DNA of 64,000 nucleotides, from assembly GCA_964396715.1 (NCBI GenBank), contig CAYNFQ010000001.1, positions 117,873 through 181,872 on the forward strand, given 5' to 3'. Below are positions 11,709-46,350 of the stretch, piece after piece. A program made the translations under genes and the position numbers. Positions within the stretch are counted from its first letter, which is position 1. Each line of letters opens with the position of its first letter. This DNA is from an uncultured Gammaproteobacteria bacterium. Lineage in GTDB: Bacteria; Patescibacteriota; Microgenomatia; Daviesbacterales; UBA10151. Under the pieces are notes generated by a model. That model worked only from the letters and a program-made list of their open reading frames with translations. It ran no database searches and was not told the DNA's origin.

Positions 11709-12144
11709 CTGAAGTAATTTTAACTCTTACCGTATCCCCTTCATATTTACTTTGTTCTCTGGGTTCGGTTGTAACAGCCAAAAAAACACTATCCTCCAAA
11801 AACTCCATAGAATGTGCGATCATTGGTTTAGAAAGTACAAGGTCCCCCGGATTTAAAATTACCGATTCTATTTTAGAATTTGGGTCAGCCATATTTTTTT
11901 CCGAATACTTAAACTTTCCGCTTACGCAATATACAAAATGATAGTCTTTTTTATGATAATGATTGCCTCTTTCGGTTCCTGCTTTGCTTGTTATATATAG
12001 AACAGCCATAAATTGCGTTTTACCACCGTCAATCAATCGGGTTATATAACCTCTCTCATCTTCAAACTCGGGTTTTGTATGGGTAACTTTTATCGCCATA
12101 TTTAATTTAGGCTTAAGTGTATAGAGGATTTTATTCCTTGTCAA
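11695..12144 (-). CDS. Cupin-fold sugar isomerase/epimerase (WxcM/FdtA-like dTDP-4-keto-6-deoxyhexose isomerase family)
   Basis: GNHYHKKDYHFVYCVSGKF cupin metal/His motif; 149 aa; paralog of 28160..28552. Confidence 0.6.
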   Translation of the reverse strand: MTRNKILYTLKPKLNMAIKVTHTKPEFEDERGYITRLIDGGKTQFMAVLYITSKAGTERGNHYHKKDYHFVYCVSGKFKYSEKNMADPNSKIESVILNPGDLVLSKPMIAHSMEFLEDSVFLAVTTEPREQSKYEGDTVRVKITSDEKE

Positions 12145-20188: not shown

Positions 20189-21106
20189 ATGACAAAAATA
20201 CTTTTTATAGGCGGTCGGGAAAAAGGCTTAAAAACACTTGAAGAATTAATAAAACAAGGAGGGAAGGTCTCATACTCATATATCCTTGAAGAAGATGAAC
20301 ATGAAGTAGAAAAATTTTCAGCCGAGATAGCGGATTTTTGTAAAAAAAGAAATATTGGTTTTACTATAACCAAAAGCATTAAAGGCAAAGAGGAAGAGAT
20401 TAAGAAATTAAATCCGGATTTGATTGTGGTTTCCGGCTGGAGAACCCTGATTCCCCCGTCGGTTATCTATATTCCTAAATTAGGAACTGTTGCCCTGCAT
20501 GAATCTTTGCTTCCAAAATACAGAGGATTTGCCCCAATTAATTGGGCGCTAATAAATGGTGAGAAATATACAGGAGTAAGCCTGTTTTATATAACTGAGG
20601 GTATAGATGATGGGGATATAATTGCCCAGGAGAAAATTGAGATTGGCCCAAACGAAACTGCTTTCGAGATTTATAAAAAATCCATTAATACTTGTGTTGT
20701 TCTGATAAGAAAATACTATCCGCTGATAATTTCCAAAAGGGCTTCCCGGACAAAACAAAATGAAAAGGAAGCGACCTATCTTTGCGTAAGGACTCCGGAT
20801 GATGGAAGAATAAACTGGATGAATTCAGCTGTCAATATACATAACTTGATCCGGGGGCTTTCACATCCTTATCCGGGGGCTTTTTGCTTTCATAAAGGAA
20901 TAAAGATTACTATACAGAAATCGGAAATCCCAAAACAATTAAACTGGGTTGGTAGAATTCCCGGCAGGATTGTTTCTATAAAGAGAGATTTTGGGATGGA
21001 GGTTTTAACCGGAGATGGATCTATTCTAATAACCTCCATAGAGGTCGACAAAAAAATATATAATCCAGCGGATTATTTTAAATCGATCAAAGATATTTTA
21101 GTATGA
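20189..21106 (+). CDS. Formyltransferase (Fmt/ArnA-N-terminal-like), probable sugar N-formyltransferase with C-terminal Fmt-like subdomain
   Basis: Catalytic signature HESLLPKYRGFAPINWALING; 305 aa; polysaccharide context. Confidence 0.8.
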   Translation: MTKILFIGGREKGLKTLEELIKQGGKVSYSYILEEDEHEVEKFSAEIADFCKKRNIGFTITKSIKGKEEEIKKLNPDLIVVSGWRTLIPPSVIYIPKLGTVALHESLLPKYRGFAPINWALINGEKYTGVSLFYITEGIDDGDIIAQEKIEIGPNETAFEIYKKSINTCVVLIRKYYPLIISKRASRTKQNEKEATYLCVRTPDDGRINWMNSAVNIHNLIRGLSHPYPGAFCFHKGIKITIQKSEIPKQLNWVGRIPGRIVSIKRDFGMEVLTGDGSILITSIEVDKKIYNPADYFKSIKDILV

Positions 21107-26172: not shown

Positions 26173-27354
26173 ATGAATGGCGTGATGTTTAGAGACTATA
26201 CTTTTATTATAGCCTTTCATGAAGCCATTCCCATTGGACCCTCCTTTGATTTGAAAAAGTTTCTCTTTATTACTCCCCCAAAAAAGCTTTTTTTTATATC
26301 ACACCCGCTTCTTTATAACAAATTAGCATACAAAAACAGTTCGTGGTATGAATATCATGAGAATGGCAGATTGATTTTCAAAAGAAAAGCCTTTCACTGG
26401 ATTTTACCCGAACCGGTCCACTATATCAAAGATGTTTTGTATACATTCTTTTGGTGCAGTCGGATAAGTGGCAAATTTGATGTTTTTGTAGGTTTAAACC
26501 CCCTTAATGCGCTGGTGGGGATATTATTAAAAAGATTTGGTAAAGTTAAAAAAGTTGTTTATTATTCAATCGATTATTTTCCTCAAAGATTTGAAAATTC
26601 TCTGATGAATAATATTTATCACTCTACAGACAAACTGGCCGTAAAATTTTCAGATGAAACCTGGAATGTTTCTCCCAACATGGCTATTTCAAGGAATGAG
26701 TATCATCATGATCCAAATTTGTTTAAAAAGCAGTTTACAGTTCCGATAGTAGCCTGGGTAAGGGGTACTAAAAGAGTAAAATTTAACGAGATTGATAAAA
26801 AAAAATTAGTTTTTATAGGACTGCTAGATAAATCTTCGGGGTTGGAGCTTATTATTAAAGCGCTTCCTAAAATAATAAACAAAATTAAAAATGTTAAATT
26901 AGAAGTTATTGGGGGAGGACCGAATTTAGACTATTTGAAACAGCTGGCAAAAAAATTTAAAGTGGATTCTAATATTATTTTTCATGACTGGATAATAAAC
27001 AGAGAGAAAGTTGAAGAAATAATTTCACACTCGGCTGTGGGGTTAGTTTTATTTAATACAAGAGAATTCGGTACAGAAATAAAAAATGCCGACCCGATGA
27101 AGATAAAAGATTATATGTCATTAGGTCTCACTATAATTTCAACGGATGCCATTTTGACTGCAGATGAAATAATAAAAGCAAAATCAGGGATTATCATACA
27201 CTTTGATGTGAATGAATTGGCAGATGCGGTAATTAAATTACTGGGGGATGAGAAGTTACTCAAAGCTTATAGAAAAAATGCGCTAGATTATATTAAGAAA
27301 TTTGATGCGGAGAAGGTATTTGGAGATAATCTGACAAGATTATTATCAGTATGA
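26173..27354 (+). CDS. GT4 (GT-B) glycosyltransferase
   Basis: 393 aa, two Rossmann-like halves, KxxE-rich C-domain. Confidence 0.7.
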   Translation: MNGVMFRDYTFIIAFHEAIPIGPSFDLKKFLFITPPKKLFFISHPLLYNKLAYKNSSWYEYHENGRLIFKRKAFHWILPEPVHYIKDVLYTFFWCSRISGKFDVFVGLNPLNALVGILLKRFGKVKKVVYYSIDYFPQRFENSLMNNIYHSTDKLAVKFSDETWNVSPNMAISRNEYHHDPNLFKKQFTVPIVAWVRGTKRVKFNEIDKKKLVFIGLLDKSSGLELIIKALPKIINKIKNVKLEVIGGGPNLDYLKQLAKKFKVDSNIIFHDWIINREKVEEIISHSAVGLVLFNTREFGTEIKNADPMKIKDYMSLGLTIISTDAILTADEIIKAKSGIIIHFDVNELADAVIKLLGDEKLLKAYRKNALDYIKKFDAEKVFGDNLTRLLSV

Positions 27355-28163
27355 ATAGAGTGATAATTACTGGCGCAACAGGTTTTATTGGTAAAAATTT
27401 AGTTGAAAACCTTAATTCTAAAAACTTTATAGTTTCAATTTTTGATCGAAAGAAACATGACTTATTCCAAATCAATTCACTTAAGGATTTATTAAAAGGG
27501 CAAGATGTAATAGTTCATCTGGCGGGTGTTAATAAAGACGGTTCACTAAAAGATATCTTAAGGGTAAACATTTTGGGAACTAAAAAATTACTAGATGCTG
27601 CTTTAAAATATTGCCCGAACGCAAAATTTATTTTCGCCTCATCCTCTCAAGTTTACGATGAAGATGATGTTTCCGGGCTTTCAAAATTAATAGCAGAGGA
27701 GTTGATAAAAGATTATGTAAAAAACAAACTCTTAAAAGGTGCAATAATTCTTAGATTTTCCAATATCTTTGGAAAAGGCTCAAAACCATTTACAAATTCT
27801 GCTCTGTCAACTTTTGCCTATTTAATAAAGGAGGGTAGAGAAATTACCATTAACGGAATAGGGGAACAAACCAGAGATTTTCTCTATATTGACGATGCCA
27901 TAAACGCTATAATAAGGGCAATTGACTTTGATCCTAAAGGGATAGAAACCTTTGATATATGTACAGGTAAATTGACTTCAATAAATCAACTTATACAAAA
28001 ATTGATGCAAATCTTAAAAATTAAGGTTCCAATAAGGTATAATAGGGGGAACCAATCAATAAAAAAGGTGCTGAAAAATTATCAAAAAGCAAAAAAAATA
28101 TTGGGTTGGCAGCCAGTAATACTATTGGAAGAAGGATTAAGACAATTTATAGAAAAAATATGA
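27351..28163 (+). CDS. Short-chain dehydrogenase/reductase, CapF/WbjC N-terminal (4-reductase) domain-like
   Basis: ITGATGFIGKNLV Rossmann; 270 aa; directly followed by cupin ORF and CapE/CapG homologs. Confidence 0.6.
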   Translation: MNRVIITGATGFIGKNLVENLNSKNFIVSIFDRKKHDLFQINSLKDLLKGQDVIVHLAGVNKDGSLKDILRVNILGTKKLLDAALKYCPNAKFIFASSSQVYDEDDVSGLSKLIAEELIKDYVKNKLLKGAIILRFSNIFGKGSKPFTNSALSTFAYLIKEGREITINGIGEQTRDFLYIDDAINAIIRAIDFDPKGIETFDICTGKLTSINQLIQKLMQILKIKVPIRYNRGNQSIKKVLKNYQKAKKILGWQPVILLEEGLRQFIEKI

Positions 28164-28552
28164 AAATTGACATAAGGAAGCTTGATGTAAAAAAAGACGA
28201 AAGAGGTTGGCTGACAGAAGCCATAAAACCTGGTGATGTCGTGGAAGCTTCCTTTGGGTTGATTCACATAACCTGTGCAAAGCCGGGATACGAAAGAGGT
28301 GGCCACTATCATAAAAGAAAAACAGAATGGTTTTGCGTGATAAAAGGAGAGGGAAAATTTTTTCTAAAAGATCTCAAGTCAGGCGATAAAAAAACTTTAA
28401 AAGTAGGAAGGGAAAACATGTCACTTATAAAAATTCCGCCTTACATTTTTCATTCAATTAAAAACACAGGAAAAGATGATATGTATATTTTAGCTTACGT
28501 TAATGAGGGATTTGATCCCAAAGATACGGATACTTACAGGGAGCTTAGTTAA
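28160..28552 (+). CDS. Cupin domain protein, CapF/WbjC C-terminal (3-epimerase) domain-like
   Basis: GGHYHKRKTEWFCVIKGEGKF; ATGA overlap with SDR gene; CapF is known as an SDR+cupin fusion. Confidence 0.6.
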   Translation: MKIDIRKLDVKKDERGWLTEAIKPGDVVEASFGLIHITCAKPGYERGGHYHKRKTEWFCVIKGEGKFFLKDLKSGDKKTLKVGRENMSLIKIPPYIFHSIKNTGKDDMYILAYVNEGFDPKDTDTYRELS

Positions 28553-28554
28553 TT

Positions 28555-29628
28555 ATGGATAAGGATTTTTCCAAAAAAATTAAAGATAAGCAAAGTTTGT
28601 TACTTCATAATAAAGTGATTTTAATAACCGGGGGGACGGGTTCATTTGGTACAGCAGTTGTTGCTAAGTTGCTAAGCTTCACTCCCAAAAGAATAATTAT
28701 ATTCTCAAGAGACGAAAAAAAACAGTTTGACATGCGAAATTTCTATGACAGCCCGCTTTTAAAATTTGTCATAGGTGATGTTCGTGATAAAGAAAGTCTA
28801 GATAAAGTTATGAGTGGAGTGGATTATGTTTTCCATGCGGCAGCTTTAAAACAAGTACCATCCTGCGAGTTTTTTCCGATTGAAGCTGTTAAAACTAATG
28901 TACTGGGCGCAAATAATGTTATAGAACTTGCCGAACATCACAATGTGGAACGTCTGGTTATTTTATCAACAGATAAAGCTGTTTATCCGATTAATGCCAT
29001 GGGTATGACCAAGGCCTTGATGGAAAAAGTGATGATAGCGGCTGCCAGAAAAATCAGCGAGGCAAATAACAAAAGTACAACCTTATGTGGTGTGAGGTAT
29101 GGAAATGTGATGTATTCCAGGGGATCTGTAATTCCTTATTTTGTAGATTTAATAAAACAGGGAAAACCTTTGGCGGTTACAGATCTCAATATGACGAGAT
29201 TTCTATTGCCTTTGCCGGATTCTGTTGATTTGGTTCTTTTTGCTTTGACTTTTGGTGAGAATGGGAATATGTACGTCAGGAAATCTTCTGCGTCAACAAT
29301 TGAGATTTTAGCCAAAGCTTTGTGTAAGATATTTGACCACAAGACTGGCATTCAAGAGGTAGGGGTGAGGGCAGGAGAAAAAATACATGAAACATTAGTA
29401 TCTGAAGAGGAATTTTTAAGAGCAAAGGATTTGGGTGATTATTACAAAATTCCGTCTGAAACTCAAGGGTTGGATTATAATAAATATTTTATCAGAGGCA
29501 GAGAAATTGAAGATGGTCGTCTAGAGCCGTTTACTTCCGAAAATACCAGACGACTGAGTTTAAAAGAAACAATAGAGTTACTTATGACTCTTCCCGAAAT
29601 TCAACAGGAATTGAAAAATTTATCATGA
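28555..29628 (+). CDS. UDP-GlcNAc 4,6-dehydratase/5-epimerase, CapE/WbjB/FnlA-like (CapD family)
   Basis: KVILITGGTGSFGTAVVAKLL; catalytic region MGMTKALMEK with Met replacing Tyr, as in CapE. Confidence 0.85.
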   Translation: MDKDFSKKIKDKQSLLLHNKVILITGGTGSFGTAVVAKLLSFTPKRIIIFSRDEKKQFDMRNFYDSPLLKFVIGDVRDKESLDKVMSGVDYVFHAAALKQVPSCEFFPIEAVKTNVLGANNVIELAEHHNVERLVILSTDKAVYPINAMGMTKALMEKVMIAAARKISEANNKSTTLCGVRYGNVMYSRGSVIPYFVDLIKQGKPLAVTDLNMTRFLLPLPDSVDLVLFALTFGENGNMYVRKSSASTIEILAKALCKIFDHKTGIQEVGVRAGEKIHETLVSEEEFLRAKDLGDYYKIPSETQGLDYNKYFIRGREIEDGRLEPFTSENTRRLSLKETIELLMTLPEIQQELKNLS

Positions 29629-30761
29629 CTCAAAAACTTAAAATCTTAACTATACTGGGAACGAGACCGGAAATCATCAGGCTTTCCCGCATATTACCCA
29701 AAATGGATGAATATTTCAATCATGTAATTGTTCATACCCGACAAAGTTACGACTTCGAGTTAAGTAAAATCTTTTTTGAAGAACTTGAGCTTAGGAAGCC
29801 TGATTATTTGCTCGAAGTAAAATCAGATACACTGGGCGGACAAATAGGAAATATTTTAAAACAGACTGAAGAGGTTATGAAAAAAGAAAAACCGGATGCA
29901 ATTTTGATTCTTGGTGATACGAACAGTTCTTTGTCGGCAATTATGGCAAAACGGCTGGGTATTTTGATATTTCATATGGAGGCCGGCAGCAGGTGTTTTG
30001 ATTTTGAGGTGGCAGAGGAAACAAACAGGGCTTTGGTTGATGTGATCAGTGATTATAATGTACCATACACACAAAGAAGTAAAGAATACTTAATTCATAG
30101 CGGAATACATCCGAGGACCATTTTAGTGACCGGTTCTCCACTGGCTGAAGTATACGATTTCTTTAAAGAAAAGATCGACTCTTCTTCGATCATTGAGGAT
30201 TTAGATCTCAAGCCAAACCAGTATTTCGTAGTCAGTGCTCACAGGGAAGAAAATGTAGATAATCCAGCTAATCTTAAAGAATTATTTGAATCTTTAAATT
30301 TTTTAACGGATTTATATAAATTACCAATTATTATCACGCTGCATCCAAGAACCAAAAAAAGGCTAAGTGACAATAAGATTAAAATTAATCCAAAGATATT
30401 GTTGCATAAACCGTTTGGGATTTTGGAATATATCAAATTGGAACAGAATTCACTTTGTACAATTTCCGACAGCGGTACTATCCAGGAAGAATCCTCCATA
30501 TTAGGTTTTAATGCCATTCAAATAAGGGCCAATTTGGAAAGGCCGGAGGCTTTTGACAAAGGAGCAATAATCCTAGCAGGTTTGAATAAAAACACTATTG
30601 TTAATGCAATAGAGATGACTATAAAAGAAAAAGAATTAGGACAAAAAATAGTAACACCAGATGATTATAAGGACATTAATGTTTCTTCCAAAGTAGTGAG
30701 GTTAATAATGGGGCTTTCAGCTGCTAAAAAATATCACAATAAAGCACCTCACGGATTTTGA
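29625..30761 (+). CDS. UDP-N-acetylglucosamine 2-epimerase, non-hydrolysing (WecB/CapG/WbjD-like)
   Basis: ILTILGTRPEIIRL, VSAHREENVDN, signature collinear with WecB. Confidence 0.85.
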   Translation: MTQKLKILTILGTRPEIIRLSRILPKMDEYFNHVIVHTRQSYDFELSKIFFEELELRKPDYLLEVKSDTLGGQIGNILKQTEEVMKKEKPDAILILGDTNSSLSAIMAKRLGILIFHMEAGSRCFDFEVAEETNRALVDVISDYNVPYTQRSKEYLIHSGIHPRTILVTGSPLAEVYDFFKEKIDSSSIIEDLDLKPNQYFVVSAHREENVDNPANLKELFESLNFLTDLYKLPIIITLHPRTKKRLSDNKIKINPKILLHKPFGILEYIKLEQNSLCTISDSGTIQEESSILGFNAIQIRANLERPEAFDKGAIILAGLNKNTIVNAIEMTIKEKELGQKIVTPDDYKDINVSSKVVRLIMGLSAAKKYHNKAPHGF

Positions 30762-31491
30762 TCTTTTTCAATGTGGGCATCAGTAAAAAAGATTTTTTTA
30801 CCATCTTTACAAACTATATACGCATTAGGATAGGGATTAGCAAGGCTTCTTATAAAATTATAAAGCTCATCAGATGTTTTTGTTTGAAAATCCTTAACAG
30901 TTAATTCACTCTGTTCAGGTTTTCTTCTTTTGAATGTAGTAACTATTGAAGGATCTTGCGGTACAGGTTGAAGAGTTCCATTGCTAATCCCTCTCAGAAT
31001 TCTAAGGGTTGTTGAAGTTCCTTCATTAATTATTCGTTTGAATATTTGATCTAGAGATCCCTTAAGAGAAAACGGAGATTGGCCATAGATTGGTCCGGAA
31101 TCCAGTCCAGCATCTGCTTTAAAAATGGTCACAGCAGACGTTTTTTCCCCTGCTATAATCTGATGTTGTAAGGGAGATCCACCTCGATATTTAGGCAGGG
31201 GAGAGATATGCAGTGTTAAAGTCAGATATTTTTCAAAAATTTCTTTTGGTATAAACCATAACCATCCAAAAATGAGTAAAATATCTGCCTTTTGTTTCTT
31301 TATTATTTCAACCAGGCCTTTTTTATCAAGAGGATCAAGTTTATAACAAGGAACAGATAAATTTTCAAACTTGCCTCTGGATTTGGTGTTGTAACTGTCG
31401 CACGAATTTTCCAATTAGTGTTTTTTTGTTGTAAGAGTTTTCTTAAAATCTGATAAGCCCATTTTCTATACCCGAAGTAGATAACGTTCAT
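30749..31491 (-). pseudogene. Frameshifted formyltransferase (PurN/Fmt-like); N-terminal 62-aa ORF (31303..31491) and 221-aa catalytic ORF (30749..31414) in different frames
   Basis: MNVIYFGYRKWAYQILRKLL... matches Fmt N-terminal Rossmann; second frame carries HISPLPKYRGGSPLQHQII; frames must join near 31381-31395. Confidence 0.55.
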
Positions 31492-32166
31492 AATGATGCT
31501 TTAAGGAGATTATAGCCTTCCGCATATTTCACGCCTATTTCAGTCCCCCTTATTCCTGCCATCCTTTCTAAATTTTGAGGGCTTCTGGGAAAAGGGTCTT
31601 CCCGTAGCTGAGTTTCGTGGCATTTTAAAAGTTCTATTTTTTCTTTAAAAATTTCAGAAATATCAAAATAAAAATTAGGTTTGAATCCATCCCGGTTAGT
31701 CCAGCTATATGGCTCTTCAGCTTCCAGTATGATTTTTGGCTGATGGCGCAAATTTTTAGGAATTGGTCTAAGAGCCGTGATAGATGCGGAAAAAAGCGCT
31801 CTATGGTCCTGATCAAAGCTGTCCCTAAATGGTATGCAAATTATATCAGGTTCAAACGCTTCAATTTTATCTTCTATATTTTCAATAAGTCTCTTTTGCG
31901 GCACACTGTCAAGTTTCATAAATTCCTCACCTTGAAACATTATTGAGTATTCAAAACCACCATACTTTGAAGCTTTTTTTGCCTCATCAAGACGACTTGC
32001 AGAATTTGTTTTTCCGGTAACCAACTGCCTTGATGAGCCAATAGATCCATACATCACGAATACTCTTGCACCAGTTTTTTTTTGCAAGCATGATCAACCC
32101 ACCACAGCAAATGGCTTCATCATCGGGATGAGGTGCAATAATCAAAATTTTTTTACCCTTAAGCAT
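31488..32166 (-). CDS. PIG-L/LmbE-family N-acetylglucosaminyl deacetylase, interrupted by a frameshift in an A9 homopolymer (plus-strand T9 at 32075-32083)
   Basis: Upstream frame encodes MLKGKKILIIAPHPDDEAICCGGLIMLAKK (PIG-L motif), downstream frame continues TGARVFVMYGS...; removing one A restores one ORF. Confidence 0.6.
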
Positions 32167-32226: not shown

Positions 32227-34377
32227 ATGATGGATATTAAAAAAAATTTGAGTCCACTAATTATTTTAATAGTTTGTTTGATCCTTATTTTTGTATGGTT
32301 TAACAAGGGTTTGCTTTTTGCAGGTGGAGAGGGGGGAATCCCTTTTTATAACCTTTCAAAAACTGCAGAGCGCATTTCTTATCTTTGGATAGATGAAGAG
32401 GCTGGTTATCCGGGTGTAGGCAATCTAACAGAAGTCCCTTACTATGCATTGCTTAAGATCCCTTTGCAGTTTGGTGTGCCTTCAAATCTGGTTCAGGCTT
32501 TTCATTTTTTCTTGGTTATGTTTACCGGCGTGGTTTCTGTATATTTTCTGATAAAAATAACCATAGAGGAAGAACTTAAAAAAAATCTTAATTTTTGGGG
32601 CGCAAAATATATATCTTTGATTGGCGCTATCTTCTATTTATTAAATCCTTTTTCCATGTCGCAGGTTTTTGGCAGGAGTTTAAATATTCAATATCTTTCT
32701 TTTGTATTGCTGCCTTTATTTCTCCTGCTGTATATCAGGGGACTTAAAACAAGAAATCTAATATATGGCTTTTTAAGCTTGATACCTTCTTTTATCTTCT
32801 CAGGAGCGTATGGCAGTTTTGGATATATACCAGCACTTTGGTTTCTGGTATTTCTTTATACTGTATTTTACCTTTGGAAAAATAGAAGTAAAAGAGAAAT
32901 TATTTTTGGTATTTTTTTCTTATCTTTTGTTTTTCTCAGCTGGATCATGGTAAATCTTTTTTGGATTATTCCGGTTTTTAAATTAGGGGGACAACAACTG
33001 GCAGCTTCCCTTAATGCGACAGAGGAAAATCTTGGGTCTTTAAGAGGGGTGAGTAAGCATTTTTCTCTGCCTATTCTTATCAGGCTTCTTCATACAGGAT
33101 ATTTCTATGAGGATTTATACGGGATTGTTTATTCAAGTTTATTCTTTGTGATTATAAGTTGGATAATTCCTGTAGTGTCATTTTTTTCATTAACCCTTTT
33201 TAAGAAAGTAACCAGTTTTAAATTCTACCTGACTTTATTTGTAATTTCCCTTTTTATATCTTTAGGTTCTAATTTCCCAACAGGCTGGTTATTTGAATTC
33301 ATATTTGAAGCTGTACCTGCATTTCAAATGTACAGGAATCCTTATGAAAAATTTGGGCTGATTTTTCTTTTAGCCTATACCCCATTTTTTGCATTGGGGA
33401 CTCTGGTTTTGTCAGAAAAATTAGCTGCCTTTTTTAAACATCAACGTTTAAAGTATTTTTGGGTGGTGCTCATTCTTTTTCTGGTGAGTGGCATTTTTGT
33501 TTGGCCAATGTGGAAGGGAATTTTTGCAGGAGGTTACAGGATCAATACCTGGATAAACGTACCTGATTATTATAAAAATGCTAACGATTGGTTAAATCAG
33601 CAGGATGGAGATTTTAGATTGTTGCATCTTCCTTTAATTCCAGGAGATGGCATAAGGTATAAGTGGGATCATCCATATCAAGGCATTGAACCGTCTGAAT
33701 TTTTATTTGATAGAGCATCAATAGCTCAAAATATTCCTTTTAACAAACAATATTACAATGTTTTACTTCAGCGCATTGGGATTTTCCAGCCAAATATTTT
33801 TGGTTCTGATCCTGATTTGACAAATTCGGAATTTAAATCCGAAAAATTAGGGGAAGAGTTAGCGAAATTAAATATTCGATATATAGTTTTACATAATGAT
33901 ATTGATGTTAGTTTCGGTGGTTTCAAAACACCACAAGAAACTGCAGTCTATTTGGCCAAAGATAAAAAAATAATCAAAGTTAAAAGTTTCGGTCAGCTGG
34001 ATATATATGAGGTGGAAATTCCCCAAAATATTCAAATTATTTATTCTCCATCAACTACTTTAATCTATGAAAAAATTAACCCCGCTTTTTATAAAGTAAA
34101 AGTTACTGATGAAGTTAAACCTTTTAATTTGAATTTTCTTATGTCTTACAATTCAAATTGGCACGCTGTTATTGATGGTGAAGTAATACAGGATCATGTA
34201 AAATTATTTTCGTATGGAAATTCCTGGGAAGTTAACAAAACCGGCAGTTTTGAAATAGATTTAGTTTATAAACCGCAGGAACTGGTTAAACAGGGACAAA
34301 TAATTTCAACGTTTTCGTTTATAGTAATATCTCTGCTGATGGTCTGTTACCAAATTATATGGAAAAAAAGAATTTAA
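32227..34377 (+). CDS. Large polytopic membrane protein, family B (N-terminal multi-TM GT-C-like domain + C-terminal extracytoplasmic beta-rich domain)
   Basis: Shares WFxxGLxFxGGxxGxxFxN, RNPYEKFG, LLHLPLIPGDGIRYKWDHPYQGIEPSEF, IRYIVLHND motifs with the giants at 38636, 42468 and 46347. Confidence 0.65.
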   Translation: MMDIKKNLSPLIILIVCLILIFVWFNKGLLFAGGEGGIPFYNLSKTAERISYLWIDEEAGYPGVGNLTEVPYYALLKIPLQFGVPSNLVQAFHFFLVMFTGVVSVYFLIKITIEEELKKNLNFWGAKYISLIGAIFYLLNPFSMSQVFGRSLNIQYLSFVLLPLFLLLYIRGLKTRNLIYGFLSLIPSFIFSGAYGSFGYIPALWFLVFLYTVFYLWKNRSKREIIFGIFFLSFVFLSWIMVNLFWIIPVFKLGGQQLAASLNATEENLGSLRGVSKHFSLPILIRLLHTGYFYEDLYGIVYSSLFFVIISWIIPVVSFFSLTLFKKVTSFKFYLTLFVISLFISLGSNFPTGWLFEFIFEAVPAFQMYRNPYEKFGLIFLLAYTPFFALGTLVLSEKLAAFFKHQRLKYFWVVLILFLVSGIFVWPMWKGIFAGGYRINTWINVPDYYKNANDWLNQQDGDFRLLHLPLIPGDGIRYKWDHPYQGIEPSEFLFDRASIAQNIPFNKQYYNVLLQRIGIFQPNIFGSDPDLTNSEFKSEKLGEELAKLNIRYIVLHNDIDVSFGGFKTPQETAVYLAKDKKIIKVKSFGQLDIYEVEIPQNIQIIYSPSTTLIYEKINPAFYKVKVTDEVKPFNLNFLMSYNSNWHAVIDGEVIQDHVKLFSYGNSWEVNKTGSFEIDLVYKPQELVKQGQIISTFSFIVISLLMVCYQIIWKKRI

Positions 34378-38000: not shown

Positions 38001-38682
38001 TCACCGGCATGAATTTGAAAAAGATTCACAGAGCAAGTTTAAATTATTTTTAATGGCTATATCCGATCCATTGTCTTGGGTTGTTGATAAATCGGTAAGG
38101 TCAATATTGGATTTGGGGTGCGGTCAGGGCAAGCCAATGGCTATGATCAAACTTTGGCACAAAATAGATACTGCGGTGGGAGTTGAGCTATATAAGCCGT
38201 ATATTAAACTTGCAAGAAAGCAGAAGTTACACGATAAATATATTATTGGAGATGTAAGAGAGGTTAATTTTAAACCAAAATCTTACGATTTAGTTTTAGC
38301 CTCCCATGTTCTAGAGCATCTTCCTAAAAAGGATGCATGGAAACTTTTGAGCAAGATGGAAAAAATTGCCAAGATGCAAATTATTGTGGCAACGCCGATC
38401 GGAGCAATTTATCAACCTGCTTTTGATGATAATAAACTCCAGCAACACAAATCACATTTTCTGCCGGAAGAATTTGAAAAAAGAGGTTACAAGGTGATCA
38501 AATACGGTTTAAGATTTCTTTTGGATGAACATTCCGGGGGATTAGTTTACAAATTTAGCAATCCTACTGTTAAAAAAATTATCTATATTGTTAATTTTTT
38601 AATGACTCCTCTTTACTATCTATTCCCTCAAATTTGTGATTATTCGTTTGTGGCCTACAGGAGTATTAATAGTGAAAATTAA
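37990..38682 (+). CDS. Class I SAM methyltransferase, tandem paralog of the C-terminal domain of 36444..38000
   Basis: ILDLGCGQGKP...ASHVLEHLPKKDAWKLL...FLPEEFEKRGYKVIKYGLRFLL collinear with fused domain; start at Met13 of ORF. Confidence 0.7.
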   Translation: MKHNHRHEFEKDSQSKFKLFLMAISDPLSWVVDKSVRSILDLGCGQGKPMAMIKLWHKIDTAVGVELYKPYIKLARKQKLHDKYIIGDVREVNFKPKSYDLVLASHVLEHLPKKDAWKLLSKMEKIAKMQIIVATPIGAIYQPAFDDNKLQQHKSHFLPEEFEKRGYKVIKYGLRFLLDEHSGGLVYKFSNPTVKKIIYIVNFLMTPLYYLFPQICDYSFVAYRSINSEN

Positions 38683-41600
38683 AGATTACCTCTCAGTTGC
38701 CTTTTTATTTATTTTGTCAACTATACTTATTTTGATTTGGTTTAAGCAAGGACTGGCATTTGGCGGAGGAGACGTAGGTTTGCCCACTTTTAACCCCCAA
38801 AGGATTTTTCAATTTATCAGTCATATCTGGTGGGAAGCATCAGCCCCGGGTTTTCCAAGACCCCAGGGAATAACGGGTACCCCCTTTTATTTTTTGTTGT
38901 CCTTATTACAAAAAATAATTCCCTCATATGTATTAATGCAGGCTTTAATCTTCTGGTTGGTACTTTTTTTTATGGGGCTGGGTATGTACCTGGTTTCAAA
39001 AAGCGTTTTCGGAAAAGAAAAAGTGCTAATACCTCTTGTCTCCAGCATACTGTATCTCGTTAATCCTTATATGCAAATTTCAGTTTGGCATAGGTTTGTG
39101 CACACCACTTTTTTTCTGGCATCGACACTGCCTTTTTTGTTTATTTTTTGGCGCAGGTGGATTACATCAGGAAAACGATTAGATCTTCTTATTTTTTCTT
39201 TAATTAATGTTTTAGGTGCAATAATTTTCAGCACTTTGGGGTTTGTGATCAGTTTGTGGGTTTTTTTATTTTTTACCTCTTTTTTTATTATTTTTATACC
39301 GCGAAAAAGTTTATTCGAGGCAAAAACAATTATAGTAAGATCTACTGCGGGATTTATTGTTTGGGTATTTATATCTTTGTGGTGGATTTTGCCCCTTTTT
39401 GCTACTTCGCAGGCGATTTTTTCCAGACAGCACTCTTCAGCTGAGAGTGTAACAAACTTAATTGTTTTAAGCAACCAAACGGCAATTCCCAATACCTTGC
39501 AGGGAATTAACCCTTTTTATTTGTTTGAAGAAAAAGAATGGGGGGAAATTTACAATCAGTGGTATTTTCTACTGATGCCATTCATCCTAGTTACCCTGGC
39601 AGTTTTGGGGTTTGTAAGGGGTTTGGGTGATCGCAAATTTATTTTTTGGAGCCTGCTTTTTTTAGTAAGCATAATTTTTGCCAAAGGGGCGGCAGCCCCT
39701 TTTGGAGGCGGTTTTGTATATTTGTTTAGTAAATTTTTTGTATTGGGAGTTTTGAGAAATCCGTTTGAGAAAATAGGTATTTTTATACCCTTTACTTACG
39801 CCATCCTTATCCCGATAGGCTTGATCACTTTTTTTAAATTTGCCAAAAAAGCGAAACTTCAATATATAGTTATGCCATTTGTATCTATATTGCTGATTTT
39901 GATTTTAGTCATTTGGCATTGGCCATTTTGGCAGGGAAAATTATTCGGAAGCCAATATAGTCCGCCCGAAGTTCAGGTACCGGATTATTATTTAAAGGCA
40001 GATAATTGGATAAAGGAACAAGGAAAGGATGGAAGAATTCTTCACCTGCCGCTGGTTGTCGGTGAAGCAACTGCGTATAAGTGGGAGTATGGCTACAGAG
40101 GTGTTGAGCCGAGCCAGGTTTTTTTCACTTCAAATCCTTCTCTGTCCCAGGGGTTTAATTTAAGCTTTTTGGATGATGCGCTAGCAACGCTGCAGATATT
40201 TTTAAACAGGAGTGATTTTGTTGATGAAGATCAAATCAGGCAACTTCTTAAAATTTTTGGGATCCGATACATTGTTTTACATCTTGATATGGATCCAACA
40301 TATATGGACGTATACAACCCAATAAGGCTTAAAAAACAATTGGGTCAGCTTAAGTTTCTAAAAAAACAGAATGAATTCGGCAAACTTATTATATATGAGG
40401 TTCTGGAAGAAAACCCTATCATTTTTACAGCTTCATCTTTTGATTATTTACTAATGGGAGAGAAAAATCAATTTTGGCCCTGGTTAATTAAGAATAAAAA
40501 CAATCAACTTATCTCAGGGATAGACTTGGATGAAGATTCGATTCATACGGATCATTCGATAGTAGTTGCTTCTTTCTCATTTGATACACCGCCCTCAAAT
40601 CCCGTGGAAGAAAAAATAGAATTGGATCAGCTTCCATCTGTCCGGATACTACCAGGATCCCCCTTTTATTTTTTAATAAGGCTGAAAGAGTACTTTGAAA
40701 CATATTCTGTTTTTGGGAAAGAACGTATTTCAAAACAAATCCTCTTTGCCAGTAAAAGGCTTGTGGAAGCGGTTAAGATAAAGGAACTTGATAAAAACAA
40801 CCAAATCTCGGCAATTTTAACAGATTATTCAGACCTTTTGGACAAGCTGAAACTATCATTAAAAGGGGCATTTCCCTATGAAAAATCTGCAGTTGATGCA
40901 ATATTTGCAAGACATAGTGTTATTTTAGATTCACTTACAGATTCCGCTGTTACAGGTAGTGAGAAGGAAATTGTAGTAAAAGCTAAAGAAAAATTGGCCG
41001 AAGATTTGAGTTTATGGGGTTTGCGGCCTCTTATCGCTTTTAATAAAGAAACATCATTGTATAACAGAAGAGTATTTACATTTCAGGTTTCGAAAACAGG
41101 GGATTATGAGGTTTTATTCGGCCTGGATAAAGGAAATAGCTTTGATGAAATTTTTGATATAGCTTTGGATGGAAAACCGATCTTAAAAAATAATCCGACT
41201 GATCTGGAACAACCGGTCAAAATAATAAGTTTCGGCAAAATATATTTAGAGCCAGGTTATCATGAATTAAGTTACCGTTCCAAAAAAATTCCCGTAAATA
41301 TTTTATCGCTTGATAAGTGGTTTAAGTCGGAAAAAGGCGAGTTTAGCGGAAACTCAGATGAGATGAGTATAAGCAGTGAGATAAATGAAACAGCGAGCAT
41401 GCAATTGCCTATGAAAGATTTTATTGCCGGGAATACTTATATACTTCGATTTGAATACTGGGTTCAAAAAGGCAAGGGGCCGATAGTGCAAGTACTTTCG
41501 GATAACGACCCAATAATAAAAGGTAAAAGAGAGATGAAAGCAGATAAGCAGTTTGCCGCCGAAACCTATAACCGTTATTGGCAAAATGCGTTTGTGAGTT

Positions 41601-42139
41601 TTGAACCCCGTTTGTCAGCCGATGATACTTTAATTGAGATATCGGTTGAACCCTGGAATGATTGTGAGATAATCAGCCCGATTCGTTCGACTTGCAAGAT
41701 TAAGAAATTTAGAAAACAATTTGACAGAAAAAGCACATTGATTGTCAAAAATGTTGTCCTTGAAAGAATTTCCAGGTCTGAGATTTTTCTTAAAACCTCA
41801 AATAGCAAAATTAAAGAGTCTACAAATTCAGGCAGGGTTGAATATGCTAGGGAAAACCCTTCTTTTGTCAGGGGGAAATTAAAAATCGATAAACCCCAAG
41901 TTTTGGTATTCGCTGAAACTTTCGATAAGGGTTGGAAGTTAGATTTATTTAAAGAGGGTAGAAAAATTAATCCTCAGGAGCATTTATTGGTAAACGGTTA
42001 TGCTAATGGTTGGTTGGTAAAGGAAGCTGGAGAATATGAATTCTCTATCAATTTTGACGCCCAGAAACTAGTCAACATAGGCGGTATAATATCTATGATA
42101 ACTTTGGGGGGATTACTATTATGGCTTATCAGAAAATAA
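38636..42139 (+). CDS. Giant (1167 aa) polytopic membrane protein, family B; N-terminal ~570-aa multi-TM GT-C-like module and ~600-aa C-terminal extracytoplasmic domain
   Basis: WFKQGLAFGGGDVGLPTFNPQRI...WWEASAPGFPRPQG, VLRNPFEKIG, ILHLPLVVGEATAYKWEYGYRGVEPS, IRYIVLHLDMD, C-terminal NGYANGW; alternative GTG start at 38672. Confidence 0.7.
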   Translation: MIIRLWPTGVLIVKIKDYLSVAFLFILSTILILIWFKQGLAFGGGDVGLPTFNPQRIFQFISHIWWEASAPGFPRPQGITGTPFYFLLSLLQKIIPSYVLMQALIFWLVLFFMGLGMYLVSKSVFGKEKVLIPLVSSILYLVNPYMQISVWHRFVHTTFFLASTLPFLFIFWRRWITSGKRLDLLIFSLINVLGAIIFSTLGFVISLWVFLFFTSFFIIFIPRKSLFEAKTIIVRSTAGFIVWVFISLWWILPLFATSQAIFSRQHSSAESVTNLIVLSNQTAIPNTLQGINPFYLFEEKEWGEIYNQWYFLLMPFILVTLAVLGFVRGLGDRKFIFWSLLFLVSIIFAKGAAAPFGGGFVYLFSKFFVLGVLRNPFEKIGIFIPFTYAILIPIGLITFFKFAKKAKLQYIVMPFVSILLILILVIWHWPFWQGKLFGSQYSPPEVQVPDYYLKADNWIKEQGKDGRILHLPLVVGEATAYKWEYGYRGVEPSQVFFTSNPSLSQGFNLSFLDDALATLQIFLNRSDFVDEDQIRQLLKIFGIRYIVLHLDMDPTYMDVYNPIRLKKQLGQLKFLKKQNEFGKLIIYEVLEENPIIFTASSFDYLLMGEKNQFWPWLIKNKNNQLISGIDLDEDSIHTDHSIVVASFSFDTPPSNPVEEKIELDQLPSVRILPGSPFYFLIRLKEYFETYSVFGKERISKQILFASKRLVEAVKIKELDKNNQISAILTDYSDLLDKLKLSLKGAFPYEKSAVDAIFARHSVILDSLTDSAVTGSEKEIVVKAKEKLAEDLSLWGLRPLIAFNKETSLYNRRVFTFQVSKTGDYEVLFGLDKGNSFDEIFDIALDGKPILKNNPTDLEQPVKIISFGKIYLEPGYHELSYRSKKIPVNILSLDKWFKSEKGEFSGNSDEMSISSEINETASMQLPMKDFIAGNTYILRFEYWVQKGKGPIVQVLSDNDPIIKGKREMKADKQFAAETYNRYWQNAFVSFEPRLSADDTLIEISVEPWNDCEIISPIRSTCKIKKFRKQFDRKSTLIVKNVVLERISRSEIFLKTSNSKIKESTNSGRVEYARENPSFVRGKLKIDKPQVLVFAETFDKGWKLDLFKEGRKINPQEHLLVNGYANGWLVKEAGEYEFSINFDAQKLVNIGGIISMITLGGLLLWLIRK

Positions 42140-42483
42140 AATCAGTATCCATAAGGTTGTTTATTTTGTTTCTTTCAATAGTATTGATTTATTATACTAA
42201 TGGTAATGCCGGCAGTGAATCTTTTGGAAATATTCAATCTGCAATTTTGTCAGCAGGTTTGATTGTTGCAGTGTATTTACCTGCTAAGAGGCCTTTCATA
42301 CTTCTCTTTGCCATTTTAATGTGGTCTGTTATGATAGGATTTTACCTGGTAGAAGCTCGGGATTATGCTTACTTTTTCGGCAGTATAGGTTTTGGGATAA
42401 TATTTCTGGTAATCTTAACTTATGTTCCGGAACTTTTAAAAACAGGTTATATAGCCGATTTTCAAAAATGGTTCAAAGATTAA
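42121..42483 (+). CDS. Small (120 aa) 3-4 TM membrane protein following giant B1
   Basis: Hydrophobic; C-terminal GSIGFGIIFLVILTYVPELLKTGY resembles GSLGIGILAILIFSYFGDFVKRGF of 45935..46264. Confidence 0.5.
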   Translation: MAYQKIKSVSIRLFILFLSIVLIYYTNGNAGSESFGNIQSAILSAGLIVAVYLPAKRPFILLFAILMWSVMIGFYLVEARDYAYFFGSIGFGIIFLVILTYVPELLKTGYIADFQKWFKD

Positions 42484-45400
42484 CAAAATTTTTTTTCAAT
42501 AATAATTTGAACAGTCATTTTTTTGCGTTATTTACGTTTTTTTTACTCAGTGTATTTCTTGTTTTCAGCTGGTTTAGACAAGGCTTAATTTACGGGGGAG
42601 GAGATGTTGGTTTGCAGACCTTTAATCCCCAAAGGATACTGGAAATCTCCCAATTTATCTGGTGGGAAGCAACCGCCCCCGGTATTCCGGTTCCCCAGGG
42701 TTTAACCGCCATACCATTCAATTTTGCCTTTTCTATTTTACAATCCATAGGTTTTAGCCCGTTTTTACTTCAGGCAAGCTTGTTTTTTCTTATACTTTTC
42801 TTCTGTGGTCTGGGAATGTATTTTCTTATTTTATTTTTGTTTGGGGACAGGTATAAAATTTATGCAATTTTGGCGGGATTATTCTATATGGTTAATCCAT
42901 ACATGATGATTTCGGTTTGGCACAGGTTTGTCCACTCAACGTTCTTCTTTATTTCGGCTCTGCCTTTTTTAACTATTTTCTGGCTGAAGTGGATCAGGAA
43001 CAAAAATCCGATATCACTCCTGATTTTTTTATTAATTAACCTTATTTCCTTGTATGCTTTCGGGACGATTGCCTATATTCTTACCCTCTGGCTTTTCCTT
43101 TTTCTAATCACTATTCCTGAAATAATTTTTTCCTGGCAAGGCCTAAAAAATTTTAAGAAAATATTGACGGTTTTTTTAGTAGGTTTCTTTTTTTGGGTTT
43201 TGACAAATGCCTGGTGGTTGGTGCCTATATTTAAAATCTCTCCGACTGCTTTGTCGGAGCAACACAGTAATGAAGAAACTTTATCTACACTAATAAATAT
43301 AAGCAGACAAACTATACTTCCCTACTCATTACAAATGATCAATCCTTTCTATTTATTTTACCAGCTGGATTTGGGGAAAAGTTACCAGAATGTTTTTATC
43401 CGTGTCCTCCCTTGGATTTTTGTTTCAGTTATTTTTATCGGATTAATAAGGGCTTTGTTCAATAAAGACATGGCAAGATGGACTCTGGTTTATCTTGCCG
43501 TAATATTTTTTGCCAAAGGCGCGGCTTCCCCCTGGGGTTTTATATATATCTTTGCCTTAAAATATTTTTTCCCCCTCGGGGTGCTGCGGAACCCGTTTGA
43601 AAAAATTGGTATTCTGTTACCTCTGGTAAGCACAATTTTATTTATCATTGGATTAAAATTTGTTTATGAAAGCCTAAGACATAAATTCAGCGTGAGGGTT
43701 GCAGCAGTTAGCCTGGTAGTTGTTTTTGGATCTGTTTTTATTTTTTGTTTGCCCTTATTCGGAGGGAGAATATTTGGTAGGTTTGATAAACCGGAATTTG
43801 TAAGTGTACCGCAATCTTATAAGGATGCGGATAATTGGATTAAATCCGACTATGAAAAGAATAAAAATCAAAATCCAGGCAAGATTTTACATTTGCCCCT
43901 GACAAGAGGTGAAAGCATTAATTATAATTGGGAATATGGCTACAGCGGACTGGAATCCAGTGCATTATTCTTTACAGCCGCCCCTTCTATTTCTCACGGG
44001 TTCAATCTCAGGAGAACTGATGATTCTTTGACAACGCTTTATTATTCGCTTCGAAATAGTCATTTATTTGATCAGAATATTACAAAAAGACTCTTGAGTG
44101 ATTTTAATATTGCCTACATTGTGTTGCATAAAGATGTGAAATGGCAGGGTTCTGATTTGTACAATCCCGCAGAGACAGAGGAGGTTTTAAATAAATTAAA
44201 TTTTATTAAACTTGAAAAAACCTTTGGAGATTTAATGATTTATAAAGTATTGGAAGAGAATTTTAATCCGAAGATTTTCATAAGCGGAAACTATCACATA
44301 ATTTATCCTCCCAATACTTTTAGCGTACAGCCCTGGATAGAAGCGTCAGGTAGTTCCATCATAACTTCCGTAGATATTGAAGATAATCGAAAATTGGAGG
44401 AATTTTCCCGAAGCACTACAATTTTTTCTAAAAGCTCCTTTGTTTATACAGAGGCATCATCTTCTTCAATTGTGTCAACTATAAATGCATTGGTTTCCAA
44501 TCCGGCAAGTAAAGACTTATGGTTAGATTCATTAATTAAAATCAGGCCGATTTTGAAACAAAATGGTGAGATCCAGGCAGAAGAATTTAGCAGTCAAATA
44601 ATTTATGCCAGTGAAAAAATTTTAAAAATAATGAGAGGATTTGCTTTAGAGAAAAATGATCCTTCCCCAAAAGAGGTAGACGATTATGGTCAAATAGTTA
44701 AAAACCTCTTTTCTGCCAATACCTACAGTCCCAGACTACAACTTTACGCTAACAGTACACAGCTCAGTCAGATATTCCAGATTCATTTATACATTCTCAA
44801 AATAATTTCTGAAATAACCCAATCAGAAACCAGAAACAATTTGATAAGGGTTTTAGATCTGTTAAAAGAAAATTTATCCAGAAATAATCTTATTCCCGAT
44901 TCTTCGGAGATGCAGGCTATCTCATCAAGAAGAGATGTTTATAAATTTGAAGTGCCTTATGATTCGGATTACAAAATTATCCTTGCATTTTCCAAGGACA
45001 AATCTATTTATCAAAATAAATTAGATAAGCTATTTTTTATCCTTGACGGTAAACCACTTAATTTTAAGGGAGAGGTAGAAAATGACCTAATTTCATTTGG
45101 TCCTGTATCCATTGCAAAGGGGTCACACATGATTAGTTTTCCGGTCCTTTTATCGGATAATTTATCAGTTATCGCTAATTTTATTAAGGGGGGGGAGGTT
45201 AATTTATCAGATGATGGTAATTTTTATCTTAAGGGGGCTGACACTAATTTAAGCTTTCTAGAAAGTAGAATAAACAATACTTTTGGACAAGACATATTTA
45301 AAGTAAACTTCGATGTAAAAGTAGAAAAAGGAAACGGTTTTAATTTTCAACTTTTGCAGGATACGGACACCATTGATCAAACCGGCCAGCCGAATTTGGC

Positions 45401-45938
45401 AATAAATCAGAAGATTTTCCAACCGGAGGGAACAGATTGGCTAGAGTATGATTTTTTTCTGCCGCCTCTCAGGTTTAATACGGATACTGTTGCCATAAGA
45501 TTTGTAGCTAATTCTCCCATAAAAGTAAGAAATTTAAAAATTGAGAGAGTATTTAACGGAGACGTTTTTTTAAGGGATATTAAATCTTTTAATAAGATAA
45601 ATGATAAAGGAGCGGGTAAGGTAGATTTCTATCAAAAAAACCCTGCCCTTTACAGAGGTAAGATTTATTTGGATAAACCATCCTTTATAATATTTTCAGA
45701 ATCTTTTCATCCCGGTTGGAAATTAGTTTTATCTAAACAGGGCAAAGATTATATTCCTACCATTCATACAATGGCAAACCTTTATGCAAATGCCTGGTAT
45801 ATTGATAAAGACGGCGAATATGATTTTAAGCTGGAATTTGAACCTGAAAGAATAGTGAAAATTGGCTCTCTATTGGCATTAGCAGGTTATTTGAGTCTTA
45901 TAATCTATATTATCTTAAAAAATAGAAAAAATAGATGA
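42468..45938 (+). CDS. Giant (~1156 aa) polytopic membrane protein, family B paralog
   Basis: WFRQGLIYGGGDVGLQTFNPQRI...WWEATAPGIPVPQG, VLRNPFEKIG, ILHLPLTRGESINYNWEYGYSGLESS, IAYIVLHKDVKW, LYANAW; start at Met50 of ORF (overlaps 3' end of small protein gene). Confidence 0.7.
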   Translation: MVQRLTKFFFNNNLNSHFFALFTFFLLSVFLVFSWFRQGLIYGGGDVGLQTFNPQRILEISQFIWWEATAPGIPVPQGLTAIPFNFAFSILQSIGFSPFLLQASLFFLILFFCGLGMYFLILFLFGDRYKIYAILAGLFYMVNPYMMISVWHRFVHSTFFFISALPFLTIFWLKWIRNKNPISLLIFLLINLISLYAFGTIAYILTLWLFLFLITIPEIIFSWQGLKNFKKILTVFLVGFFFWVLTNAWWLVPIFKISPTALSEQHSNEETLSTLINISRQTILPYSLQMINPFYLFYQLDLGKSYQNVFIRVLPWIFVSVIFIGLIRALFNKDMARWTLVYLAVIFFAKGAASPWGFIYIFALKYFFPLGVLRNPFEKIGILLPLVSTILFIIGLKFVYESLRHKFSVRVAAVSLVVVFGSVFIFCLPLFGGRIFGRFDKPEFVSVPQSYKDADNWIKSDYEKNKNQNPGKILHLPLTRGESINYNWEYGYSGLESSALFFTAAPSISHGFNLRRTDDSLTTLYYSLRNSHLFDQNITKRLLSDFNIAYIVLHKDVKWQGSDLYNPAETEEVLNKLNFIKLEKTFGDLMIYKVLEENFNPKIFISGNYHIIYPPNTFSVQPWIEASGSSIITSVDIEDNRKLEEFSRSTTIFSKSSFVYTEASSSSIVSTINALVSNPASKDLWLDSLIKIRPILKQNGEIQAEEFSSQIIYASEKILKIMRGFALEKNDPSPKEVDDYGQIVKNLFSANTYSPRLQLYANSTQLSQIFQIHLYILKIISEITQSETRNNLIRVLDLLKENLSRNNLIPDSSEMQAISSRRDVYKFEVPYDSDYKIILAFSKDKSIYQNKLDKLFFILDGKPLNFKGEVENDLISFGPVSIAKGSHMISFPVLLSDNLSVIANFIKGGEVNLSDDGNFYLKGADTNLSFLESRINNTFGQDIFKVNFDVKVEKGNGFNFQLLQDTDTIDQTGQPNLAINQKIFQPEGTDWLEYDFFLPPLRFNTDTVAIRFVANSPIKVRNLKIERVFNGDVFLRDIKSFNKINDKGAGKVDFYQKNPALYRGKIYLDKPSFIIFSESFHPGWKLVLSKQGKDYIPTIHTMANLYANAWYIDKDGEYDFKLEFEPERIVKIGSLLALAGYLSLIIYIILKNRKNR

Positions 45939-46264: not shown

Positions 46265-46350
46265 AATACCTATTCTCACTTATTTTATTTTTTCTGATAG
46301 TAGCATCGGTATTTTTTTATATTTTGGGGGTTAGATTTAAGAAAAAATGA
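46261..46350 (+). CDS. Micro-ORF, 29-aa single-TM peptide MKYLFSLILFFLIVASVFFYILGVRFKKK
   Basis: ATG overlaps upstream TGA (46261-46264), its TGA overlaps ATG of giant B3 (46347-46350); below ORF-track length cutoff. Confidence 0.35.
   Translation: MKYLFSLILFFLIVASVFFYILGVRFKKK

Follow-up and report, generated by a model that had tools for sequence, protein, structure and literature searches.

Paired frameshifts in a PIG-L deacetylase gene and its formyltransferase partner point to recent loss of a sugar-modification module in a Daviesbacteria population

Background

The zinc deacetylases of the PIG-L/LmbE family include BshB, MshB, the archaeal diacetylchitobiose deacetylase, TT1542 and BcZBP. 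In the teicoplanin/A40926 "acyl swap", a deacetylase of the LmbE type (Orf2*/Dbv21) acts first and an N-acyltransferase follows. Transfer of a formyl group is the business of a second family, whose Formyl_trans_N fold is common to ArnA, Fmt and the sugar N-formyltransferases. Genes that modify glycans are also among those whose reading frame can hang on a mononucleotide tract, as in the flagellin-glycan gene Cj1295 of Campylobacter jejuni and the LOS genes of Neisseria. According to Atkins et al. (2016; PMC5009743), who discuss the cases of Buchnera and Blochmannia, a run of 9 A or T residues suffices for efficient transcriptional slippage in bacteria.

The locus described here lies in a stretch of DNA of 64,000 nucleotides (64 kb), termed the window, to which all coordinates refer unless another locus is named. 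The locus is carried by a metagenome-assembled genome (MAG) of Candidatus Daviesbacteria (JACPUL01) from agricultural groundwater, sequenced on Illumina HiSeq 4000/NovaSeq 6000 instruments and assembled with MEGAHIT. A deacetylase gene in the window had been predicted to be interrupted at a run of nine A residues, with homopolymer sequencing error and phase variation as the proposed causes. The analysis below confirms the interruption, finds a second one in the adjoining formyltransferase gene, and favours neither of those causes.

The interrupted deacetylase gene

The nine A's occupy positions 32083-32075 of the minus strand (T9 at 32075-32083 of the plus strand) within ...ATCATGCTTGC-AAAAAAAAA-CTGGTGCAAGAG..., or, with a longer 5' flank, ...GGGTTGATCATGCTTGC-AAAAAAAAA-CTGGTGCAAGAG.... 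The frames of the two overlapping ORFs bear out the original prediction that the gene breaks at this tract (Table 1). The upstream ORF specifies MLKGKKILIIAPHPDDEAICCGGLIMLAKK followed by 29 out-of-frame residues, and the native part of its 59-aa product holds the HPDDE metal-binding motif (H13, D15, D16). The 199-aa downstream fragment (188 aa in GenBank and Logan, which call it from an ATG) lacks the HPDDE motif but has the third conserved His, H121 in the numbering of the repaired protein. Removal of one A restores a single ORF, as had been anticipated, of 678 nt, or 225 aa plus stop; the length of 226 aa originally given had counted the stop. Addition of two A's (A11) also yields the repaired deacetylase, with one extra Lys.

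Assignment of the gene to the PIG-L/LmbE family was likewise correct: the repaired 225-aa protein scores 64.8 bits with the Pfam PIG-L profile (PF02585; gathering cutoff 28.2) and covers profile positions 1-128 of 129. Its alignment to 35 homologues needs no gaps, and none of the invariant (40/40) or near-invariant (30/30) columns is lost, with H13, D15, D16 and H121 invariant in all 36 aligned sequences. When it is aligned to 8BGN, H13/D16 (HPDD) and H121 (DQDH) coincide with the conserved HPDD and DH of that structure; in the PIG-L family, residues at these positions are the metal-binding (zinc ligand) residues. The domain is not encoded on one polypeptide, however, since residues 1-30 and 31-225 sit in different frames, and the deacetylase as encoded is, by the disposition of its frames, a PIG-L/LmbE family pseudogene. 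Because the frameshift separates H13/D16 from H121, neither fragment should be active.

Origin of the A tract

A protein search returned 538 homologues, and nearly every one of the best 120 has a length of 218-241 aa. The closest intact orthologues (P0001, P0002 and P0004, at 91%, 86% and 84% amino acid identity, respectively) come from the syntenic loci L010-L012. In these three loci the tract reads GCA AAA AAA ATT (A8) or GCA AAA AAA GTT (A7), and in more distant orthologues GCC AAA AAA CAA/GAA (A6) or GCA AAA AAA GAC (A7), always in frame; K29 is at least 90% conserved in the alignment. To judge from these codons, the A run is derived from a conserved Ala-Lys-Lys motif whose lysines this AT-rich genome encodes as AAA. 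We infer that the in-frame ancestor in this lineage read GCA AAA AAA ACT (Ala-Lys-Lys-Thr, A8), which would make the present A9 a +1 insertion. The two-frame arrangement is not conserved, every orthologue examined being a single in-frame ORF.

The short entries examined among the best 120 were the broken window gene itself (P0006), a record truncated at its C terminus (P0062), and two cases of start-codon choice (P0034 and P0109). The last two, of about 200 aa and beginning MLAKK, were considered as lineages broken at the same tract and rejected: their upstream HPDDE region is in frame, with in-frame upstream starts at a GTG (position 301 in L093) and an ATG (position 2917 in L094). In Logan these genes (L093 301-978, L094 2917-3606) are called from an internal ATG at 200-201 aa, giving N-terminally truncated entries that are mistakable for frameshifts.

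A second frameshift in the formyltransferase gene

The formyltransferase that had been noted beside the deacetylase is indeed present (30749-31491, minus strand), although its own frameshift had gone unnoticed. Its ATG overlaps the deacetylase stop codon (ATGA). Alignment with the three syntenic loci reveals a 1-nt deletion in a run of three A's, where the window reads GAGGC-AA-GTTTG, L011 GAGGC-AAA-GTTTG, L010 GAGGC-AAAA-TTTG and L012 GAGGT-AAAA-CTCA. In a tblastn search with the repaired protein, the matches for residues 1-43 and 40-247 fell in separate frames, and no indel compensated for the shift. The 221-aa ORF covers positions 68-152 of the 181 in Formyl_trans_N (PF00551) and thus falls short of a full-length match; the repaired protein, of 247 aa, aligns to Fmt positions 2-250, and the orthologues at L010-L012 are intact at 243-257 aa. 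Read against these relatives, the partner gene is a broken member of the Formyl_trans_N family. A run of three A's is not a tract prone to hypermutation, and an Illumina homopolymer artefact is implausible there.

Elsewhere in the window, a second formyltransferase-like ORF (20189-21106, plus strand; 305 aa) is 27% identical to the broken one, and its length suggests a housekeeping fmt.

Table 1. Features of the deacetylase/formyltransferase locus and its neighbours, in window coordinates
Feature	Position	Strand	Description
SDR reductase	27351-28163	+	intact, 270 aa
Cupin	28160-28552	+	intact, 130 aa
FnlA-like 4,6-dehydratase/epimerase	28555-29628	+	best NCBIfam match TIGR04130, below equivalog cutoff
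WecB-type 2-epimerase	29625-30761	+	intact
C-terminal formyltransferase fragment	30749-31414	-	221-aa ORF; HxSxLPxxRG catalytic loop
N-terminal formyltransferase fragment	31303-31491	-	62-aa ORF; native frame to about 31373, then out of frame
1-nt deletion in formyltransferase	31371-31372	-	located by alignment with L010-L012; 3-A run
C-terminal deacetylase fragment	31488-32087	-	199-aa ORF from TTG, +1 frame
N-terminal deacetylase fragment	31987-32166	-	59 codons from ATG 32166 to TGA; first 30 codons native
A9 homopolymer (plus-strand T9)	32075-32083	-	site of +1 A insertion relative to orthologues
GT-C (AftD-like) membrane glycosyltransferase	32227-34377	+	intact, divergent, upstream; neighbour conserved in L010-L012

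Reproducibility of the lesions

An exact lookup of the neighbouring epimerase protein recovered the JACPUL01 contig and loci from eight further sequencing runs assembled in Logan. These nine independent loci, which span up to 13 kb, match the window at 100% identity from end to end, and A9 is found in each of the seven assemblies that cover the tract, namely the Illumina MAG and six independent single-run assemblies. These are consensus contigs of one clonal population, in which minor A8 subpopulations would be invisible, and "fixed" is used here to mean dominant at the sampled site only. The truncated 188-aa deacetylase product occurs on 10 contigs and the broken formyltransferase product (MBI3103846.1) on 8. 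Conversely, the exact A8 and A11 deacetylase products are absent from about 15 billion public proteins, as is the repaired formyltransferase. A search with the tract flanks, GATCATGCTTGC-N6-12-CTGGTGCAAGAGTATTCGTG, gave no match in JGI metagenome contigs or GTDB representative genomes, which do not hold this population.

Homopolymers and gene integrity across the window

The window has a GC content of 35.7%. Runs of A or T of at least 9 number 5, against 3.2 expected from shuffles, and those of at least 8 number 35 against 9.7 expected, a 3.6-fold excess, with a maximum length of 9. Besides the deacetylase tract, the runs of 9 lie at 1866, 3571, 26797 and 61853. Such an excess with no run longer than 9 fits richness in AAA/TTT codons if longer runs are kept out by selection or mutation pressure. 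All 35 of the runs of at least 8 fall inside ORFs, and the frame is broken at a single one of them, the deacetylase A9. The rest of the window consists of dense uninterrupted genes, so that the deacetylase and formyltransferase genes are the only disrupted ones in 64 kb; no second PIG-L paralogue that might compensate was found in the window.

Two further candidates were rejected. An apparent third split gene (42121-42483/42321-45938) proved to be a separate gene for a 120-aa membrane protein followed by a gene that starts at ATG 42468. A genetic code with UGA as a sense codon was dismissed, as the deacetylase gene and its orthologues end in TGA after ...KASL and long ORFs are found under table 11 throughout the window.

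The window also encodes very large membrane proteins of 716-1167 aa (32227-34377, 38636-42139, 42468-45938 and 46347-49031, plus strand). Two of these four match the AftD-like GT-C domain, and those at 42468-45938 and 46347-49031 have no Pfam match; the proteins at 32227-34377 and 42468-45938 have in common a motif, G(L)(L/I)(F/Y)(A/G)GG(E/D)(G/V)G, near their N termini.

Conserved pairing and putative role of the module

In all seven orthologous loci examined in other lineages, where the deacetylase is 52-91% identical to the repaired protein, a formyltransferase gene begins 0-65 nt after the deacetylase gene. The seven (three Logan relatives and one MAG each from Levyibacteriota, Patescibacteria, an archaeon and Bdellovibrionales) represent several phyla. 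This conserved adjacency indicates that the two genes work together, and with it the functional tie between deacetylase and neighbouring formyltransferase that was originally proposed gains support. About sixteen distant relatives (below 35% identity, among L029-L065) also have a formyltransferase-like gene close by, mostly just upstream. The scan of GTDB loci yielded four relatives above 50% identity, and contributed evidence on synteny and little on evolution of the tract. The pairing of a PIG-L gene with a formyltransferase gene of about 245 aa was seen in L010-L015, L051, L093 and L094, which comprise CPR bacteria, the archaeal MAG and the Bdellovibrionales MAG.

Downstream of the module and convergent with it are four intact sugar genes (27351-30761, plus strand), an arrangement that is syntenic in L010-L012. 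Two of these, the SDR and cupin genes, match positions 2-213 and 253-365, respectively, of one NCBIfam model of 372 positions, a WbcJ/FnlB-type reductase. The division of this reductase into SDR and cupin parts recurs in L010-L012 (271 + 130 aa) and is therefore natural, not the result of a further frameshift. A second cupin, FdtA/WxcM-like, lies at 11695-12144 on the minus strand. From their family matches, the four genes probably form a pathway to a 2-acetamido-2,6-dideoxy-L-hexose of the UDP-L-FucNAc type, and would supply the substrate sugar. The deacetylase would then take the N-acetyl group off a 2-acetamido sugar, and the formyltransferase would put a formyl group on the free amine. With both genes broken, the population presumably keeps the N-acetyl form of the sugar.

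Age of the lesions

Pairwise dN/dS between the repaired genes and their counterparts at L010-L012 is 0.04-0.07 for the PIG-L gene and 0.12-0.14 for the formyltransferase gene, at dS values of 0.9-1.4, which are near saturation. The same values were obtained among the intact orthologues and for the neighbouring intact genes. With dS above 1 against the nearest relative, dN/dS says little about relaxed selection, and only a very recent event would fit. Neither repaired frame contains a stop, and neither gene carries a further lesion. Given that about 5% of substitutions would make a stop, over 1,416 sites, neutral evolution since inactivation amounts to at most about 0.042 substitutions/site (95%). 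The lack of stops together with this bound implies that inactivation was recent, or else that the genes are still expressed somehow. Unchanged dN/dS and the lack of further lesions fit very recent inactivation, and fit equally well genes that are still under selection.

Probable recent loss of a two-gene module

The best explanation is probably that the deacetylase/formyltransferase module was inactivated recently in one clonal Daviesbacteria population, and that the inactivation is fixed there. Replication slippage would have added one A to the ancestral A8 tract, and the insertion ends the deacetylase after 59 codons. An independent 1-nt deletion puts the first ~40 native residues of the translationally coupled formyltransferase out of frame. 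Together the two lesions would be the traces of a conserved sugar-modification module ("de-N-acetylate, then N-formylate") that has lately been lost, with the N-acetylated-sugar pathway and the glycosyltransferases staying intact. Both genes display reproducible disruption of a frame that is whole in their orthologues. By simple arithmetic, were two lesions to fall at random in 64 kb, the second would land in the same 1.4-kb module with a chance of about 2%, and clustering of this sort would be expected if the loss of one member of a functional unit relaxes selection on the rest.

The population would have been caught shortly after losing an N-acetyl-to-N-formyl editing step while keeping its other glycan machinery, and would illustrate on a small scale how CPR bacteria go on losing genes from their surface-glycan loci. 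The lesion pair is ordinary in kind. Arguably of more interest than the frameshift is the intact PIG-L/formyltransferase pair of CPR bacteria and DPANN-like archaea, which appears to be uncharacterised. There is also a consequence for annotation: the GenBank entries MBI3103844-46, consisting of a 59-aa "PIG-L family deacetylase" (MBI3103844.1) and two "hypothetical proteins" of 188 aa and 221 aa (the latter MBI3103846.1), are pieces of two pseudogenes and should be flagged so. Of the formyltransferase gene, the 221-aa piece is the only one with a GenBank entry.

Alternative explanations

Phase variation, with slippage between A8 (ON) and A9 (OFF) toggling de-N-acetylation of a surface glycan in a sampled population that is mostly OFF, is an unlikely account of the locus. 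The tract does lie early in the ORF, where a change of +/-1 toggles the frame (A9 is OFF, and A8 or A11 gives the full-length product), and an otherwise pristine sequence with low dN/dS fits a gene still in use. Surface-glycan modifiers, moreover, are often phase-varied in pathogens (PMC8355987, PMC3068675). Nevertheless, the positive support that a switch calls for is wanting: the consensus is A9 in all seven tract-covering assemblies, and no ON allele turned up in the databases searched. The tract consists of conserved Lys-Lys codons, A6-A8 in orthologues, rather than a lineage-specific expansion, and has grown by no more than a slip of one base would add; the other 34 of the 35 A/T runs of at least 8 in the window are in frame. 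Furthermore, the co-transcribed formyltransferase is frameshifted in a 3-A run, which offers no useful rate of switching back, so that an ON deacetylase would not restore the unit. A literature search found no paper joining Patescibacteria with phase variation.

Leaky or programmed rescue, whereby RNA polymerase slippage on the T9 template, or a tRNA-Lys +1 shift on AAA AAA A, yields some full-length deacetylase, is to be doubted to the same degree. An A9 run at the junction of two frames is prone to slippage (PMC5009743), transcripts with two extra A's or one fewer restore the frame (the A11 product differing by one Lys), and the lack of signs of decay fits retained function. On the other hand, the out-of-frame arrangement occurs in no orthologue examined, so that this is no evolved recoding site, and a +1 site like that of prfB is unlikely since the shift site has no in-frame stop or rare codon. 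The sequence around the formyltransferase lesion (GAG GCA AGT) is not slippery either, and rescue would accordingly not extend to the whole module. Any slippage that does restore the deacetylase may be accidental leakage and not a mechanism evolved for that purpose.

The two mechanisms can be merged into a reading in which A9 is a stochastic or leaky switch, operated by slippage of DNA and/or RNA polymerase, that tunes de-N-acetylation of a surface L-hexosamine in an episymbiotic CPR bacterium, the deacetylase acting alone after loss of the formyltransferase. If so, it would give Patescibacteria their first described case of glycan variation under the control of a homopolymer, but the reading is quite improbable.

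Least credible, and very improbable, is the view that the true genome has A8 and an intact gene and that A9 is a sequencing or assembly error: homopolymers are classic sites of indel error and the repaired ORF is perfect, but A9 recurs in seven assemblies from different Illumina runs and two pipelines (the MEGAHIT MAG and Logan) while the frame is kept through each of the other 34 runs of 8-9, which together rule out stochastic assembly error, contradict the error originally suspected and leave a systematic miscall at A9 very unlikely, and the equally reproducible second frameshift, in a 3-A run, is implausible as a homopolymer error.

Comparison with known systems

As an enzyme, the repaired deacetylase resembles the characterized PIG-L/LmbE zinc deacetylases, in that it spans the full PF02585 domain and can be aligned over its whole length with 1UAN, 2IXD and two diacetylchitobiose deacetylases of solved structure (8BGN and 3WE7). 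Its best NCBIfam match is BshB1, yet the score of 67 bits compares with an equivalog cutoff of 182; with scores far under the BshB1 and BshB2 equivalog cutoffs, it is neither enzyme. Unlike these members of the family, the ORF in the window is interrupted as encoded. The window formyltransferase has the Formyl_trans_N fold in common with ArnA, Fmt and the sugar N-formyltransferases, all of which it matched, and its best match in the PDB is 1ZGH, an uncharacterised 260-aa "Fmt-like" protein.

The logic of the intact module may be likened to that of the teicoplanin/A40926 acyl swap, in that an N-acetyl group would be taken off and the amine re-acylated, here presumably with formyl from N10-formyl-THF. 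In contrast to the teicoplanin and ArnA systems, the pair in the window is known from sequence, and might act on a polymer or on a sugar linked to a nucleotide or to a lipid.

With the phase-variable genes of C. jejuni (Cj1295) and Neisseria, the deacetylase gene has in common an intragenic mononucleotide tract that sets the frame of a glycan modifier (PMC3068675, PMC8355987). Tracts of that type are usually poly-G/C, differ in length from cell to cell and strain to strain, and are not imposed by residue conservation, whereas the tract in the window does not vary in length in seven assemblies, encodes a conserved Lys-Lys and belongs to an operon whose partner gene is irreversibly broken.

There is also a likeness in circumstance to the poly(A) pseudogenes of Buchnera and Blochmannia, which are partly rescued by polymerase infidelity (PMC5009743). 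Those organisms are likewise AT-rich, small in genome and host-dependent, and there too a single-base indel in a coding tract of A8-A9 interrupts an otherwise intact gene. The two situations differ in that the window is known from DNA alone and in that its neighbour gene is broken where there is no poly(A) tract, a feature that points to loss of the module and not to frameshifts tolerated because they are rescued.
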